A stretch of DNA of 44,128 bases from Candidatus Bathyarchaeota archaeon ex4484_205 (lineage in GTDB: Archaea > Thermoproteota > EX4484-205): positions 1-44,128 of the forward strand of contig NJEE01000001.1 in assembly GCA_002255045.1 (NCBI GenBank). Direction: 5' to 3'. The notes beneath the pieces were generated by a model that was not told the DNA's origin, did not search any database, and saw nothing but the letters and a program-made list of their open reading frames with translations. Positions within the stretch are counted from its first letter, which is position 1, and every line of letters begins with the position of its first letter. Position numbers and translations under genes: made by a program. Shown piece by piece: positions 6,823 through 27,053 of this stretch.

Positions 6823-6838
6823 AAGAGGGCGGCTTAAC

Positions 6839-6975
6839 TGGTGCCTCTCGTCCCTAATGAGGGATGGCGAGCCGGAGTTTCAGGCAGAGCCTTTTGAACC
6901 GGCGAACCCCTACGGGAGGAGGTTTCTAAGTAGATCTTGAGCCTCCCGCCTTTGACCTGGCTCGGCCATCGCCGC
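6839..6975 (-). tRNA. tRNA-Leu(CAA), class II, with three inferred introns (37/38, T-loop 59/60, acceptor 70/71); CCA encoded
   Basis: Minus strand: GCGGCGA TG GCC GAGCCAGGTCAAA GGC G GGAGG CTCAAG[ATCTACTTAGAA]A CCTCC TCCCGTAGGGGTTC GCCGG TTCAAA[AGGCTCTGCCTGAAAC]T CCGGC TCGCC[ATCCCTCATTAGGGACGAGAG]GC A CCA. Confidence 0.8.
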
Positions 6976-7044
6976 CCAAATATTTCTTATTTCAAAAATT
7001 GGATTTAAGGATTTATATCAAGGAAGGAGAAAAGATAATGAGGT

Positions 7045-7320: not shown

Positions 7321-7967
7321 TGTATGTAATGGAGGATTTTACAGAACCACCAGAAGGGAAAATAGTAATTTTCGGTTTCCCAAGTTGGGGGAATGTAGGA
7401 CCCACGGTATGTGAGCAACTAGTTAAGTTTTCTGCGGCGAGGTATTTAGGTAGCATATATGCATCCCTATTCTCTGATTCGATTTTCACACAGGAAAGTG
7501 GATTCAGCGAGTTACCCTCAATAAAATTTTATCGCACGGAAAGAAGGATAGAAAAAGTGATAGTCGGAATAGGTAATTTTAAGATACTGAGGGAGAACCC
7601 AGAAGCTCATACCCTATGTGAATATCTCATCAAACTTGCAGAAAGATTCAGATGGAAAATGATAATAGGTGTAGAAAGTATAATGTCAGGAGATGGGGAG
7701 CATAGCGTAATTTTAACGAATAAAGAACTAATTAAGATGCTTCCAAAACATGTCACCGTTATGCAGGAAAAAAGTATGAAGAGTCTATTGGGAACCCTTT
7801 TAGGATTGTGTAGAATTAACAGAATAGATGGAATTGGAATATTTGCATCTTCTGAGAAATTACTTGCAAAGGAAAATACCATCATTAGTACTTTTAGGAC
7901 ATTACTTTACATACTTCACTCAGTCCTATCTATGGAGGAAAGTGAAACCAGTCAAAGGAGGGGTTAA
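7308..7967 (+). CDS. PAC2-family protein (proteasome assembly chaperone-like)
   Basis: 219 aa. The N-terminal IVIFGFPSWGNVGPTVCEQLVK resembles the GFPGxGxVG block of archaeal PAC2 proteins. Assignment is tentative. Confidence 0.4.
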   Translation: MREVMYVMEDFTEPPEGKIVIFGFPSWGNVGPTVCEQLVKFSAARYLGSIYASLFSDSIFTQESGFSELPSIKFYRTERRIEKVIVGIGNFKILRENPEAHTLCEYLIKLAERFRWKMIIGVESIMSGDGEHSVILTNKELIKMLPKHVTVMQEKSMKSLLGTLLGLCRINRIDGIGIFASSEKLLAKENTIISTFRTLLYILHSVLSMEESETSQRRG

Positions 7968-9273
7968 AGCCTCTCCATTTCTTTGAGTCGAAGACATATC
8001 TTTTCATAGGTTTAGACAGATGTCTATGAGCACGAGGAGGAGGAAGATATATACCTGGCTCTAAATCTCTTTTAACAGTTACTACGTCAGGAGCATATGA
8101 TATCGCACCACATTTCTTACAGATATAACCTTGATGAAGTCCTCTGGAGGTCATTCTTATACCACAGTTTACACATAAGGGTGGTCTACGAACATACTTT
8201 CTTGTAAGATAGTTAACTTCTAGTTTTTCAAGATTTAGTATATAGGAATTAGAATATCTATCTTGCTGAACCCCTCCATAACAAGAGACTACATCCTCCT
8301 CCTTTAACTTTAAAACCACTTCTCGAAAGCTTCCGGTTGGCTCATATGCAGCACATTTTATTTCCCCACTATGATCCGACAATTCAAAGAATACATGGCC
8401 ACCCTTATATATCTGAGGTTTCTGAGTAATTTTCCCTCTTATAAAAACAGATTGATATAACTGAAGGGAGGAGATCGGGACAGGATGCGTGGGAAGATGT
8501 ACCCCAGTCCCTTGATTGCTTCTGAAAATAACCCAAGAATCGATTGGCTCTTCTACCTTAATAAAATGGAGAGACTTCAAAACTGCGGAGGGAGACTCCC
8601 CTCTAACACCAAATAACACAGGATCTGGGCCGTGTGGAGCTATGAGAACACGTTTAGTTTCAGGATCTACGTTATTAAAGGTTTGAGAGCTGCAAGCCTT
8701 ATCCATCTCAAGTACGGAGAGCGTGTTAATTTTCCGTGGTTTACCCCAATTTTCTCTTTTACGATACGCTATGAGCTCATATGTATGATCTTCAAGTAGA
8801 AGAGAGCCAATTGCCGACACACCACCAACAATGCCACGGATGGAACGATAATAGTGGATGAAAGAACAATACTGTGAAACTTGGCTATAAATATAGCGGG
8901 GATTTAGAGGATATCTTAACGCGGCCATATATATCTCTGCAAATACTTGAGGGATCTCACCTTCAAGCGCTATTAGTATGGGATCCGAATGAGGCAAACC
9001 TTCTTTCACGATAGAGTCGAAAAATTTTGTAATTCTTTTATAAAAAGTTTTCAAATTTTGTATTTTTAGTTCAAATCTCAGGCAAACTGCAGCATTTCCA
9101 CGCGTTTTCCATGGAATATTTGGATTAAGACGAATAAGCAGAGGATAATCTTGAAAAACTACATTATAATTATCTATAAGATACTTGAGAAGTCGCCCTG
9201 CAACATAGGTAGTACAACCTCCTTTATGGGAATCTGTGTCATCTAGGGCAAGATGAAGAAGAATCATTCTCAC
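7930..9273 (-). CDS. tiaS: tRNA(Ile2) 2-agmatinylcytidine synthetase
   Basis: 447 aa. N-terminal LHLALDDTDSHKGGCTTYV, a central OB-like region and a C-terminal zinc ribbon CVNCGIRMTSRG...YICKKCG. Confidence 0.8.
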   Translation of the reverse strand: MRMILLHLALDDTDSHKGGCTTYVAGRLLKYLIDNYNVVFQDYPLLIRLNPNIPWKTRGNAAVCLRFELKIQNLKTFYKRITKFFDSIVKEGLPHSDPILIALEGEIPQVFAEIYMAALRYPLNPRYIYSQVSQYCSFIHYYRSIRGIVGGVSAIGSLLLEDHTYELIAYRKRENWGKPRKINTLSVLEMDKACSSQTFNNVDPETKRVLIAPHGPDPVLFGVRGESPSAVLKSLHFIKVEEPIDSWVIFRSNQGTGVHLPTHPVPISSLQLYQSVFIRGKITQKPQIYKGGHVFFELSDHSGEIKCAAYEPTGSFREVVLKLKEEDVVSCYGGVQQDRYSNSYILNLEKLEVNYLTRKYVRRPPLCVNCGIRMTSRGLHQGYICKKCGAISYAPDVVTVKRDLEPGIYLPPPRAHRHLSKPMKRYVFDSKKWRGFNPSFDWFHFPP

Positions 9274-9285
9274 TCACCTCTTTTT

Positions 9286-9426
9286 TGGTAGCGGGGGGTG
9301 GAATTTCAGGCAAAGCCTTTTGAACCACCGCTTGAGGGATTGAACCTATCTCAGGGTCTCTCCTTCATTATGAGCCCTGCGGGTTATCCGAATTATAGTC
9401 TTTAGACCTGGCTACCCCACCCCGCT
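9286..9426 (-). tRNA. initiator tRNA-Met(CAU) with four inferred insertions (D-loop, 37/38, variable loop, T-loop 59/60); CCA encoded
   Basis: Minus strand: AGCGGGG TG GGGT [29-nt D-loop region] ACCC G CAGGG CTCATA[ATGAAGGAGAG]A CCCTG [22-nt variable region] GGTGG TTCAAA[AGGCTTTGCCTGAAAT]T CCACC CCCCGCT A CCA. The A1:U72 pair and three G:C pairs closing the anticodon stem are archaeal initiator hallmarks. Confidence 0.8.
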
Positions 9427-17304: not shown

Positions 17305-17399
17305 TGGGCCGGGCCGGACTTGAACCGGCGACCTCCCGGTTATCAGCCGGGTGCTCTAACCTTCAGCGTGACAATCTCACTATGCTAAGCTACCGGCCC
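17305..17399 (-). tRNA. tRNA-Ile(GAU) with one ~20-nt D-loop insertion
   Basis: Minus strand: GGGCCGG TA GCTT AGC[ATAGTGAGATTGTCACGCTGAA]GGTTA GAGC A CCCGG CTGATAA CCGGG AGGTC GCCGG TTCAAGT CCGGC CCGGCCC A. Confidence 0.8.
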
Positions 17400-19530: not shown

Positions 19531-19711
19531 GGGGCCGTCGTCTAAACGAAAGGGATAGCCAGGTAGGACGGCGGGCTCCAGCCACTATTGAAGGGTTCGC
19601 TGACTAAGTGGATGAAGAATGGTTGGAGCTCGGGAGGAACCCGTAGGTGTAAAAGCCGGGGAAATGTGAGCGTTCAAAGGGCTTTGCCTGGAAGTCGCTC
19701 CGGCCCCACCA
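19531..19711 (+). tRNA. tRNA-Trp(CCA) with four inferred insertions, including a 57-nt 37/38 intron; CCA encoded
   Basis: GGGGCCG TC GTCT [22-nt D-loop region] GGAC G GCGGG CTCCAG[57 nt, 19582-19638]A CCCGT [23-nt variable region] GAGCG TTCAAA[GGGCTTTGCCTGGAAG]T CGCTC CGGCCCC A CCA. Confidence 0.8.
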
Positions 19712-22588: not shown

Positions 22589-22689
22589 GCCGAGGTACCC
22601 TAGCCATACAACACTAGAAAGGTAGGGGGCAAGCCTGCTAAGCTTGTGCCCGTAAGGGCTCGCGGGTTCAAATCCCGCCCTCGGCGCCA
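22589..22689 (+). tRNA. tRNA-Ser(GCU), class II, with one ~13-nt D-loop insertion; CCA encoded
   Basis: GCCGAGG TA CCC TAGCC[ATACAACACTAGA]AAGGTA GGG.. CAAGC CTGCTAA GCTTG TGCCCGTAAGGGCTC GCGGG TTCAAAT CCCGC CCTCGGC G CCA. Confidence 0.8.
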
Positions 22690-24342: not shown

Positions 24343-24499
24343 TGCCGGAGGCGGGATTTGAACCCGCGACTTCTGGACAGGTAGTTTTCCAGATTTCTCA
24401 TGCCCCCGATTATGAGTGACGCTACAACTTGTTCTGGCGCTCTAGTCTAAGGGGGCTATCTAACCAGGTTGCTCTCTGGTTGATCTGAGCTACTCCGGC
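24343..24499 (-). tRNA. elongator-type tRNA(CAU) (Met, or Ile2 before agmatidine formation) with five inferred 16-18-nt insertions
   Basis: Minus strand: GCCGGAG TA GCTC AG[ATCAACCAGAGAGCAA]CCTGGTTA[GATAGCCCCCTTAGACTA]GAGC G CCAGA[ACAAGTTGTAGCGTCA]CTCATAA[TCGGGGGCATGAGAAA]TCTGG[AAAACTACCTGTCCAG]AAGTC GCGGG TTCAAAT CCCGC CTCCGGC A. Confidence 0.75.
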
Positions 24500-24541
24500 A
24501 CTATTTGAAGGAGAGAATAATGAGGGATAAAAATTTTCTCT

Positions 24542-25156
24542 TTATCGACTCTCTAAACCTTTTAACTCTTCAGGTAGTTCAGGAAGCATTTCCTTCGTTT
24601 TCTGGGCAGCAAGTTCAGCAGCTTCCTTCAAGATCTTTTCCGCCTCCCTAGAAGAAGTGGACGTATCTACGGACACAGGAGAAACCGCACCAGCCTCAAT
24701 TACAAGCTGGTCTAACATATCATTAACTTTCTGGAGATCATAAGCCACTTCGGGTAGAACGCCCTTAAGGGAACCCTCAAGTGATCTTATAATATTAACT
24801 GTAGGACCGAGAACATTTACGACATCTCTAAATTCCTGTGCTATTTCCAGTCTCAGAATAGTCCTCTTCAGAGCTAGTTGACTTTGGAGAATGACTTGTG
24901 ATACTCTTTTGAGTTGAACAACCTCATTCGCATACACGGTAGCTCTTGGTTTATCGCCATCTTTTAAAGCCTCTACACAAGCTTGAAAAAGGTCTTTGCT
25001 ACGTTGGATAAGTTGTCGATATTTATTTTCTAGCTTAGATTCTTGAAGTTTCAGAAGTGTAAGAGCTTCTAAAACTCTTTCTCTTGAGGAGGAAGGGTAT
25101 TCATTCTTTACTACAATTTCCTTTTCTTTCTTCTTTCTGAAGAAGGGTAGTCTCAC
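24542..25156 (-). CDS. cdvB: ESCRT-III (Snf7/CdvB-family) protein
   Basis: 204 aa, predicted helical hairpin core. The proline-containing acidic tail MLPELPEELKGLE is MIM2-like. Divergent from Vps4. Confidence 0.65.
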   Translation of the reverse strand: MRLPFFRKKKEKEIVVKNEYPSSSRERVLEALTLLKLQESKLENKYRQLIQRSKDLFQACVEALKDGDKPRATVYANEVVQLKRVSQVILQSQLALKRTILRLEIAQEFRDVVNVLGPTVNIIRSLEGSLKGVLPEVAYDLQKVNDMLDQLVIEAGAVSPVSVDTSTSSREAEKILKEAAELAAQKTKEMLPELPEELKGLESR

Positions 25157-25245
25157 CTACTTACACCTATTCTACGTGGTATGCCACACTACATAAAATT
25201 TTCCTCAAGTGAAATTAGGGAAATAAACATTAAAAATAATGGAGA

Positions 25246-26340
25246 TTGATAGGGATATGGACAGAGGAGTTGGAATTGATAGAACAGCTTGAAAAGGCAG
25301 CGAAAGATGCAGCTCAAGAGGCAGTATCAAAAGACAGAAATGGAGACAGGGAGGGAGCGATAGAGAAATATCGAGAGGCGATAAAATATCTAAGAAAGCT
25401 ATATTTCTATAGTGAAGATGAGTATAGGAGAAGAGTTTACTTAGAGAAAATTACGGAATATACCTCAAGAATAAAAACATTGAAGGAAGGATTAAAACCA
25501 GTCACTATAGAAAGAAAACCCTCTATCACATGGAATGATATAATAGGATTAGAAGATGTGAAGAGAGTAATTAGAGAAAGTATAGTATATCCTTATAGAA
25601 GACCGGATTTATATCCACTTGGCTGGCCTCGAGGAATATTACTTTTCGGGCCACCAGGATGTGGAAAAACCTTAGTTGCAACCGCAGTGGCTAATGAAAT
25701 AGATGCAGAATTCTATTCAGTGGATGCTGCCACACTACTTTCTAAATGGTTAGGAGAATCAGAGAAGAATATTAAAGAATTATTTACACGGGCACGTGAA
25801 ACAAGTCTGAAAGGGAAACCAGTCATAATCTTCATAGATGAGGTAGATGCACTAACCTCCAAGAGAGAAATGGAGGTGGGTGGTGAGGTTCGTGCGAGAA
25901 CACAACTCCTCAAAGAAATGGATGGATTAGAAAACAAGGGCAGAAAATTCTATCTGTATGTCCTTGCAGCAACCAACAAACCTTGGGAGCTTGATGAACC
26001 TTTCATAAGGAGGTTCCAAAAAAGAATATACGTGAAGCTACCGGGACTGCAGGAACGAATAAAACTATTTAAGTATTACTGTAGAAGATTGAAAGTATCA
26101 CCAGAGGTAGATTTTGAGAAACTTGCGATGGAAACAGAATATTATTCTGCAGAGGACATATATTTACTATGCGTAGATGTACAGAATAAGTTAGCAAAGG
26201 AAGTGCTGGAATTAAATTTACCTCAGCGAGAGGCAACTTTTCAGGACTTCTTAGAGGCATTGAATAACAGAAAAACTAGTATAATATTAGAGAATCTGAG
26301 ACGCTACGAAGAATGGGCAAATAGGTATAAAGCAATTTAA
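25246..26340 (+). CDS. cdvC: Vps4/CdvC AAA+ ATPase with N-terminal MIT domain
   Basis: 364 aa with a TTG start. MIT-like GAIEKYREAIKYLRKLY, Walker A GPPGCGKT, Walker B VIIFIDEVD and ATNKPWELDEPFIRRF. Confidence 0.85.
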   Translation: MIGIWTEELELIEQLEKAAKDAAQEAVSKDRNGDREGAIEKYREAIKYLRKLYFYSEDEYRRRVYLEKITEYTSRIKTLKEGLKPVTIERKPSITWNDIIGLEDVKRVIRESIVYPYRRPDLYPLGWPRGILLFGPPGCGKTLVATAVANEIDAEFYSVDAATLLSKWLGESEKNIKELFTRARETSLKGKPVIIFIDEVDALTSKREMEVGGEVRARTQLLKEMDGLENKGRKFYLYVLAATNKPWELDEPFIRRFQKRIYVKLPGLQERIKLFKYYCRRLKVSPEVDFEKLAMETEYYSAEDIYLLCVDVQNKLAKEVLELNLPQREATFQDFLEALNNRKTSIILENLRRYEEWANRYKAI

Positions 26341-27053
26341 ATAGCAGATCCTTCTGATCCTCTTTCTGAAACTATTTTCACTTTGCCTTCTTTCTCCAAT
26401 AGCTTTAGGATATCCATTAACTTTTCTTGTGGAATGTTCAAATCCTTTGAACACTGCTCAAGGGAGAAGGAGGACTTCTTCTCTTTAATATACCGGTATA
26501 CCTCCATTTCTATAGAGGGAGGGACCTCAGGAAAATCTTCTTTTATCTTTTCGGAGGCCAGGCGAGAGGCACTTTCAAGAATCCTTTTCGCCTCATTGCT
26601 CGCCTCAATGGAGGATGAAGGAACAGGGATAGATTCAGAGGGTATTAAGACTGAGAGATCTTCTAACATCTTATTAACTTCCAGATTTATGTAAGTCAAA
26701 TTTGTTGGAAAATTCTCTCTCACATCTTGTATAATATCTTTTAGAGGTACCAATATGGGGGGGATTGAACCCACAATCTCTATGGTTTCAAGCCTTACTC
26801 TCAGCGCTTCAAGCAGAATTAGGCTTTTTTGAATTAATTCTGCCAATCTCCGTACTTGAACAATTTCTTCAGCATACATTATACTCTCTTCCCTATTACC
26901 TCTTAATTCAGCATCCACACACATAGAAAAGAGCTGTTCTCTTTTATTTTTCAAGTTACGATACACACGATTCAATTTCTCAATTTGTATAGAAATATTT
27001 ATGAGAGCTCTACTAATCAGGCGACGTTCATCATGTTCGTCAATCAACACCAT
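26337..27053 (-). CDS. cdvB: ESCRT-III (CdvB-family) protein with C-terminal winged-helix domain
   Basis: 238 aa. Snf7-like helical core followed by VYRYIKEKKSSFSLEQCSKDLNIPQEKLMDILKLLEKEGKVKIV. Confidence 0.65.
   Translation of the reverse strand: MVLIDEHDERRLISRALINISIQIEKLNRVYRNLKNKREQLFSMCVDAELRGNREESIMYAEEIVQVRRLAELIQKSLILLEALRVRLETIEIVGSIPPILVPLKDIIQDVRENFPTNLTYINLEVNKMLEDLSVLIPSESIPVPSSSIEASNEAKRILESASRLASEKIKEDFPEVPPSIEMEVYRYIKEKKSSFSLEQCSKDLNIPQEKLMDILKLLEKEGKVKIVSERGSEGSAI

Follow-up and report, generated by a model that had tools for sequence, protein, structure and literature searches.

Exon and intron structure of the locus

A 157-nt locus on the minus strand (24499..24343) of the 44,128-nt stretch of contig NJEE01000001.1 analysed here (hereafter the window; Candidatus Bathyarchaeota archaeon ex4484_205) appears to encode an elongator tRNA-Met(CAU) interrupted by five inserts. 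The acceptor strands GCCGGAG and CTCCGGC stand at its two ends and a perfect T-arm directly adjoins the 3′ acceptor strand (GCCGGAG...CTCCGGCA), as the original prediction had transcribed them, 157 nt apart. Excision of the inserts (16, 18, 16, 16 and 16 nt; 82 nt in total) leaves the 75-nt sequence GCCGGAGTAGCTCAGCCTGGTTAGAGCGCCAGACTCATAATCTGGAAGTCGCGGGTTCAAATCCCGCCTCCGGCA. ARAGORN recognises this spliced 75-mer as tRNA-Met(CAU) with all stems perfect (7/7, 4/4, 5/5 and 5/5 pairs), which bears out the earlier claim that removing five inserts of 82 nt gives a textbook 75-nt tRNA. The 75-mer also has U8, A14, G18G19, U33, A37, a UUCAAAU T-loop, a G15:C48 pair and A73. In its unspliced form the gene was detected neither by ARAGORN, with or without intron search, nor by Rfam at the gathering threshold or at E <= 10; Rfam recognised its T-arm alone.

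Using cloverleaf-constrained dynamic programming, we found that a parse of the locus with zero stem mismatches requires at least five introns. The six exons are 15, 9, 8, 7, 8 and 28 nt long, and the CCA end is not encoded. The coordinates listed here are those consistent with bulge-helix-bulge (BHB) splice motifs and were verified by re-joining the exons in silico.

24485..24499, minus strand: exon 1, tRNA nt 1-15, GCCGGAGTAGCTCAG; acceptor 5′ strand, U8, D-stem 5′ strand, A14 and G15
24469..24484, minus strand: intron 1, 16 nt, position 15/16 (D-loop), ATCAACCAGAGAGCAA; sole possible register
24460..24468, minus strand: exon 2, C16-G22, 9 nt, CCTGGTTAG
24442..24459, minus strand: intron 2, 18 nt, position 22/23, within the D-stem 3′ strand, ATAGCCCCCTTAGACTAG
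24434..24441, minus strand: exon 3, A23-G30, 8 nt, AGCGCCAG
24418..24433, minus strand: intron 3, 16 nt, position 30/31, AACAAGTTGTAGCGTC
24411..24417, minus strand: exon 4, A31-A37, 7 nt, ACTCATA, bearing the CAU anticodon
24395..24410, minus strand: intron 4, 16 nt, canonical position 37/38, ATCGGGGGCATGAGAA
24387..24394, minus strand: exon 5, A38-A45, 8 nt, ATCTGGAA
24371..24386, minus strand: intron 5, 16 nt, position 45/46 (variable loop), AACTACCTGTCCAGAA
24343..24370, minus strand: exon 6, G46-A73, 28 nt; remainder of the variable loop, T-arm, acceptor 3′ strand and discriminator A73

The archaeal splicing substrate is a 4-bp helix between two 3-nt bulges, and at the canonical site the anticodon bases 34-35 lie inside the helix (PMC4090602). 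Based on this geometry, we used a register rule in which, after the exon base X, bases X-5..X-2 pair with intron bases -6..-3, leaving the bulges X-1, X / i1 and i-2, i-1 / Y (the slash marks the border of exon and intron). All registers yielding an identical mature sequence were enumerated for each insert, and in five of the five inserts only one register fits the rule. The rule also fits the introns of the Rfam-detected tRNA genes of the window, as checked by hand. The motifs in these registers are as follows.

Intron 1, 15/16: central helix GCUC/GAGC with 4/4 pairs, mimicking the D-stem; inner helix of 2 bp, without outer helix
Intron 2, 22/23: central helix GGUU/GACU with 4/4 pairs, two of them G.U; inner helix UAG/UUA of 3 bp and a CCCCC loop
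Intron 3, 30/31: central helix CGC(C)/(A)GCG with 3/4 pairs; outer helix GAG/CUC, inner helix ACA/UGU
Intron 4, 37/38: central helix CUCA/UGAG with 4/4 pairs; the anticodon stem as outer helix, inner helix of 1 bp
Intron 5, 45/46: central helix CUGG/CCAG with 4/4 pairs, mimicking the anticodon stem; inner helix of 2 bp, without outer helix

In shuffled inserts the probability of such a central helix is 0.007, 0.089, 0.13, 0.043 and 0.016 for introns 1 to 5, respectively, and the joint probability is ~5e-8. The motif of intron 2 is the weakest among the five. The strict hBHBh′ form, with outer and inner helices of at least 2 bp, does not hold throughout: only intron 3 has both, 3 bp each, and the other motifs are of the relaxed HBh′ or hBH type described for Crenarchaeota. 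The junction geometry anticipated in the original prediction is thus present as a BHB core in one register per intron, with the full hBHBh′ form confined to intron 3. Composite introns, joining either introns 1 and 2 across exon 2 or everything from intron 2 to intron 4, were rejected, as their central helices fail when checked by hand.

Four of the block boundaries are ambiguous by sequence because the bases at the junctions are repeated. Intron 1 kept the limits first proposed (24469-24484) and the BHB registers shifted the other four blocks by -1 to +2 nt. One block assigned to the D-loop stays there, at 15/16, as does the block in the variable loop; a second block assigned to the D-loop lies at 22/23, in the D-stem 3′ strand, and the sites flanking the anticodon loop, given as 31/32 and 38/39, become 30/31 and the canonical 37/38. 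Among the pairings cited for these blocks, TCTGGA/TCCAGA and CTCAT/ATGAG contain BHB central helices, whereas ATCAACCAG/CTGGTTAGAT lies outside any BHB and is a competitor of the intron 1 and intron 2 motifs.

Homologous genes and identity of the product

At least 15 independent assemblies (NCBI, ENA, JGI and Logan samples) contain the gene at 99-100% identity over 232 nt, two NCBI metagenome-assembled genomes labelled 'Candidatus Bathyarchaeota archaeon' among them; it is therefore no assembly artefact. Within the gene only precursor nt 98, in the intron 4 loop, varies (C/U). Upstream of the gene we identified a candidate promoter.

24526..24539, minus strand: putative archaeal promoter, assigned purely by resemblance, with TATA-like TTTTTATC at -34..-27 and purine-rich AGAAAA before it

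An A/T-rich box at about -34..-26 after purines is common to all tRNA genes of the window that start a transcription unit and to the signal recognition particle RNA gene, and the promoter of the elongator tRNA-Met gene is nearly identical to that of tRNA-Thr(GGU).

A metagenome scan anchored on the 5′ exons, in which optional D-arm inserts were allowed, recovered 28 other tRNA-Met(CAU) genes with the same 5′ exon sequence, and these contain 0-3 introns each when parsed. Loci L145 and L164, on contigs of 57% GC from an unrelated archaeon, carry a two-intron tRNA-Met gene with a 25-nt canonical intron at 37/38 and a 56-nt T-loop intron, and their product is identical to the five-intron product at 75/75 positions. 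The identical tRNA is thus fragmented differently in different lineages.

An intron at 30/31 with the outer helix GAG/CUC occurs in nine other, distant metagenomic tRNA-Met genes, and in seven of these the intron sequences are closely similar; by this comparison intron 3 and those 30/31 introns are homologous. The fourth central pair of this intron covaries (U28:A in six sequences, C28:G in two) and is C.A in the five-intron gene, most likely following a change of pair 28:42 from U:A to C:G in the host lineage. Nearly all homologous tRNA-Met genes use the 37/38 position, and several have a variable-loop intron at 43/44, not 45/46. A D-arm intron was found in none of the 28 homologues, so introns 1 and 2 appear to have been gained specifically in the host lineage.

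Canonical introns of 46-53 nt with UGAUGA- and CUGA-like motifs were observed in homologous tRNA-Met genes of other uncultured archaea (loci L141, L144, L148-L151, L153, L155-L157, L159 and L161), which suggests that they carry a C/D-box guide RNA, as known for tRNA-Trp. Rfam returned no C/D match on the homologous loci tested, and every multi-intron gene among them was missed.

When one stem mismatch was allowed, the relaxed parse also returned a structure with four introns, not five. It keeps the introns at 15/16, 22/23 and 30/31 and combines them with a single 32-nt intron, CATGAGAAATCTGGAAAACTACCTGTCCAGAA, whose central helix has 3/4 pairs. The 3′ strand of the anticodon stem would then be UCGGG, taken from intron 4, and the variable loop GGGUC; the mature sequence would read ...CUCAUAAUCGGGGGGUCGCGGG... 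in place of the ...CUCAUAAUCUGGAAGUCGCGGG... obtained with five introns. However, an A29.G41 mismatch arises in the anticodon stem, and this product matches the five-intron product at 72/75 positions, compared with 75/75 between the five-intron product and L145/L164. The closest homologues (L145/L164 and L167) have UCUGG in the stem, like the five-intron product. Moreover, two central helices of 4/4 pairs are lost for one of 3/4, and so is the canonical 37/38 intron present in nearly all homologues. We rejected this parse for its stem mismatch, its 72/75 product match and the loss of the 37/38 intron, and we regard it as extremely improbable; the five-intron structure is retained in what follows.

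Regarding its identity, the spliced product has the anticodon CAU and A73 and lacks the initiator marks (A1:U72 and three G:C pairs at 29-31:39-41). Because it has G1:C72 and the anticodon stem CCAGA/UCUGG, initiator identity is excluded; the initiator proper, which has A1:U72 and GGG:CCC, is encoded separately at 9289-9426. The CAU anticodon alone does not separate Met from Ile2, and the same architecture could yield tRNA-Ile2(CAU), in which C34 is converted to agmatidine by TiaS and AUA is read, and not an elongator tRNA-Met. As the window encodes TiaS (7930-9273), a tRNA-Ile2(CAU) must be present in some part of the genome. The Ile2 tRNAs of archaea are normally similar to Ile1 in their acceptor and 29:41 elements, and archaeal elongator Met tRNAs typically begin with GCC. 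Our product has the acceptor GCCGGAG (G4:C69) and A:U at pair 29:41, whereas the tRNA-Ile(GAU) of the same organism has GGGCCGG (C4:G69) and C29:G41. This difference in acceptor stem and pair 29:41 favours Met over Ile2, and we consider an Ile2 product unlikely.

Precursor folding and a proposed order of splicing

Regarding transcription and the processing enzymes, we infer the following pathway. The gene's own promoter, of the TATA box and B recognition element type, would give a precursor of ~157 nt whose acceptor stem and T-arm could form at once. At each intron, X-5..X-2 and intron bases -6..-3 would form the 4-bp central helix, leaving the two 3-nt bulges, within which a splicing endonuclease (EndA) of broad specificity would cut; an RtcB-type ligase would then join the exons. 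The order of removal favoured by the thermodynamic model would be introns 3, 5 and 1, then 4, then 2. The energetic costs on which this order is based, i.e. those of forcing each motif at 37 °C, were:

Intron 3: 2.1 kcal/mol in the primary transcript, 2.9 kcal/mol alone
Intron 5: 3.0 kcal/mol in the primary transcript, 3.8 kcal/mol alone
Intron 1: 4.6 kcal/mol in the primary transcript, 4.0 kcal/mol alone
Intron 4: 10.5 kcal/mol in the primary transcript, 2.7 kcal/mol alone
Intron 2: 14.9 kcal/mol in the primary transcript, 7.4 kcal/mol alone (5.1 kcal/mol at 75 °C)

Some of the motifs compete for the same bases. C32-C34 are claimed both by the outer helix of intron 3 and by the central helix of intron 4, and C40-G43, needed for the outer helix of intron 4 (the anticodon stem), are sequestered by the central helix of intron 5. 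The outer helix of intron 4 can thus form only after introns 3 and 5 have been removed. As these motifs share bases and cannot all form together, we infer stepwise splicing. In the cheapest order, introns 3, 5 and 1 leave in any sequence, followed by 4 and then 2, and each step stays within 4.6 kcal/mol at 37 °C; the exception is the final removal of intron 2, at 7.4 kcal/mol (5.1 kcal/mol at 75 °C). The order is a model rather than an observation, and it would need introns 4 and 2 to become accessible only after earlier splicing. With stepwise removal, simultaneous cleavage on either side of the 7-8-nt anticodon exons would not be expected.

Two competing helices, each just marginally unlikely as a chance pairing, dominate the minimum-energy fold of the precursor (-57.6 kcal/mol). 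In the first, precursor nt 16-24 pair with 33-42, so that intron 1 and exon 2 form 9 bp interrupted by one bulge (longest ungapped run 6 bp, p = 0.03). No BHB register fits this helix, and it was rejected as a splicing motif and treated as a competitor. In the second, nt 44-49 (GCCCCC of intron 2) pair with nt 93-98 (GGGGGC of intron 4). It was rejected as a designed interaction, with p = 0.04 for the pair and 0.17 over all intron pairs, and the single-nucleotide polymorphism noted above preserves the pairing as G.U. This helix is possibly a chance feature that would still act as a kinetic lock.

Several observations weigh against a functional five-intron gene. The folds competent for BHB splicing lie at about -28 to -34 kcal/mol, far above the minimum, and introns 4 and 2 cost 10.5 and 14.9 kcal/mol in the primary transcript, compared with 0.8-5.0 kcal/mol for forcing the motifs of accepted introns of the same organism (those of the Rfam-detected tRNAs of the window). 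Introns 1, 2 and 5 are without a proper outer helix and need relaxed (HBh′-type) recognition, and the central helix of intron 3 has a C.A mismatch. EndA and RtcB were not found: none of 40 open reading frames examined in the window has a tRNA_int_endo or RtcB domain, and the gene tables of ~17 kb of fetched flanking sequence list neither protein. Within-species variation is too low to show selection, with one polymorphism in the 157 nt of the gene and up to 1.3% divergence in the flanks. Moreover, there is no close relative for synteny, the next-best Vps4 in the protein collection being 56% identical.

The locus could accordingly be a decaying or silent pseudogene with inserts tolerated as junk and a working elongator tRNA-Met encoded elsewhere. 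The position of the splice-competent fold above the energy minimum and the two costly motifs would fit this, and the ~60 kb of genome examined leave room for a second copy. However, the 75 exon bases show no damage and equal the homologue's mature tRNA throughout, the register-correct central helix is kept in 5/5 inserts, the intact promoter agrees with those of the neighbouring tRNA genes, and the gene is fixed in every assembly recovered. A single elongator tRNA-Met gene is usual in archaeal genomes, which also counts against a spare copy. Moreover, the initiator tRNA-Met and tRNA-Trp genes of the same window, normally single-copy and essential, carry four introns each at least, so that fragmentation is compatible with function. 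We therefore think a pseudogene very unlikely. The reading of the locus as a multi-intron tRNA gene, already made in the original prediction, agrees with the cloverleaf, the BHB cores, the 75/75 homologue, the homology of intron 3, the promoter and the recurrence in independent assemblies. In our view the locus very probably functions as an elongator tRNA-Met(CAU) gene in an uncultured archaeon of the TACK group (Thaumarchaeota, Aigarchaeota, Crenarchaeota and Korarchaeota), with six exons and five protein-spliced BHB introns.

Neighbouring genes and known fragmented tRNAs

We searched the window for hidden tRNA genes using GC-rich intergenic islands and CAU loops. In total it holds 10 tRNA genes with 21 introns, i.e. 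2.1 introns per gene, and 5/10 genes were called correctly by ARAGORN and Rfam; both Met genes, Trp and Ser were missed entirely. No further tRNA genes were found in 17 kb of extra flanking sequence. The genes recovered or corrected in addition to the elongator are:

9289-9426, minus strand: hidden initiator tRNA-Met(CAU), 138 nt, at least four introns; missed by ARAGORN and Rfam, spliced product accepted by ARAGORN
17305-17399, minus strand: tRNA-Ile(GAU) with a 20-nt D-loop intron at 17a/18, central helix UAGC/GCUG with 4/4 pairs
19531-19708, plus strand: hidden tRNA-Trp(CCA), 178 nt, at least four introns, with CCA at 19709-19711; spliced product accepted by ARAGORN
22589-22686, plus strand: tRNA-Ser(GCU) with a 14-nt D-loop intron, 4 nt upstream of tRNA-Val; detected by neither ARAGORN nor Rfam

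The initiator gene lies directly upstream of the TiaS gene (7930-9273), and its product has A1:U72 and G29-31:C39-41. Its introns are located in the D-loop (~19-20 nt, register ambiguous), at 37/38 (11 nt), at 47/48 (17 nt, central helix 4/4) and in the T-loop at 59/60 (16 nt, full hBHBh′). The tRNA-Trp introns are at 15/16 (13 nt), 37/38 (57 nt), in the variable loop (~18 nt) and in the T-loop at 59/60 (16 nt), and the 57-nt intron holds C/D-box-like CUGA and GAUGA motifs. The T-loop introns of these two genes are nearly identical (GGGCTTTGCCTGGAAG in tRNA-Trp, AGGCTTTGCCTGAAAT in the initiator), which suggests duplication or transposition between them. ARAGORN misnamed tRNA-Ile(GAU) as tRNA-Phe, and the Rfam alignment covers only its positions 10-63.

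The 20 short introns of the window are 10-20 nt long with a mode of 16; 15/20 begin with A and 16/20 end in AA or AG. All five introns of the elongator tRNA-Met fit this local signature. None of them has a paralogue among the 20 short introns, where only the T-loop pair of the initiator and tRNA-Trp is alike. Given the four-intron initiator and tRNA-Trp, the organism seems to rely routinely on the splicing of multi-intron tRNAs.

Regarding the host, the window codes for TiaS, aRF1, Pelota, Trm56, PolD, two ESCRT-III-like proteins and Vps4. The organism does not belong to Thermoproteales (both DP1 and DP2 of PolD are present, and the NCBI label is 'Candidatus Bathyarchaeota archaeon'). The best outside matches of Vps4, 50-56% identical, come from Nitrososphaerota, Aigarchaeota and Brockarchaeota. 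A cell-division cluster at 24542-27053 adjoins the tRNA gene and consists of a divergent Snf7/ESCRT-III-like gene, Vps4 and a CdvB-like protein with a coiled coil and a C-terminal winged helix. The Snf7/ESCRT-III-like protein gave only a weak match to Pfam Snf7, and at E <= 1e-10 homologues were found within the species alone.

We also noted a GC-rich structured element of ~150 nt at 6827-6977 on the plus strand, between a cyclophilin-like gene and a small gene of the MarR/helix-turn-helix family; the latter is annotated in the gene table of locus L173, with a PAC2 gene farther downstream. The element has a terminal helix GGGCGGC/GCCGCCC followed by A, a 13-bp helix and a minimum free energy of -70 kcal/mol (z = -2.9). 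No Rfam match was obtained even at E <= 1. It may represent one more RNA gene that is heavily interrupted or atypical.

Three introns are the stated maximum per archaeal tRNA gene (PMC4033280; PMC8450103, the tRNAscan-SE 2.0 paper), and the original prediction had assumed the same ceiling. This figure is outdated, as four-intron tRNA genes of Asgard archaea are listed in Supplementary Data 4 of PMC11291895. Its expectation that five would be exceptional remains valid, since five exceeds any number in the searchable literature, where we found no archaeal tRNA gene with five or six introns.

The closest parallels are known from Thermoproteales (Pyrobaculum, Caldivirga and Thermofilum; Sugahara et al. 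2007/2008), as summarised in PMC4033280 and PMC8450103. In these accounts, too, short BHB and relaxed-BHB introns occupy canonical and non-canonical sites (D-arm, anticodon stem, variable loop and T-loop), and similar introns recur across tRNA genes, the counterpart in the window being the T-loop introns of the initiator and tRNA-Trp. However, Thermoproteales have at most three introns per gene, compared with five here, whose internal exons are just 7-9 nt long; the count for P. calidifontis is 71 introns in 46 genes (PMC8450103), compared with 2.1 per gene in the window; and our host lies outside the order.

The 2024 study of Asgard archaea found 92-95% of tRNA genes interrupted (PMC11291895). 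Its Atabeyarchaeia and Freyarchaeia (Valentin-Alvarado et al. 2024) resemble our case in having several four-intron genes, among them those for Ile2(CAT), Arg(TCT), Leu(GAG) and Trp, and in that some introns missed by tRNAscan-SE were found by structure-guided inspection (PMC11291895). They differ in that four is the listed maximum, in a table without a column for a fifth intron, that the introns are mostly longer than ours, at 20-90 nt by their coordinates, and that they belong to another phylum (PMC11291895).

In the nucleus of Cyanidioschyzon merolae, a tRNA gene may contain as many as three BHB introns, placed in the D-arm, anticodon loop and T-arm, and ordered removal that correlates with motif stability was shown there by experiment (PMC3728597); here the same is predicted by the thermodynamic model. 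That system differs in being a eukaryotic nucleus, in its maximum of three introns and in that some genes are permuted (PMC3728597). Split and tri-split tRNAs (Nanoarchaeum equitans, Caldivirga maquilingensis), as PMC4033280 presents them, are likewise made of small pieces with BHB-like junctions processed by EndA and ligation, but these come from separate loci joined in trans, whereas our six exons are collinear within a 157-nt gene. The mechanism is thus the known one and not new. Five introns are a new maximum within the searchable literature, in a TACK lineage that belongs to neither Thermoproteales nor Asgard.

More tentatively, and with more doubt than confidence on our side, the precursor may encode its own splicing order via mutually exclusive BHB motifs, and possibly via pairings between introns or between intron and exon, which would spare the micro-exons release on both sides; this isolated TACK lineage may also hold the most fragmented tRNA gene set known. 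If so, the gene would be a natural model for a splicing endonuclease acting on densely packed, overlapping substrates.

The five-intron gene raises the known limit on the splitting of a collinear tRNA gene. With its five introns and exons of 7-9 nt, ten cleavages and five ligations would be needed to make a 75-nt RNA, and this constrains models of substrate recognition by archaeal EndA and RtcB and of exon retention. The 30/31 intron and 37/38 position shared with distant tRNA-Met genes, set against the D-arm introns that look lineage-specific, would offer a dated example of stepwise intron gain. Standard tools overlook this gene and its equally fragmented neighbours. Genomes of such lineages therefore appear to miss essential tRNAs, which biases completeness estimates and inferences on the genetic code.

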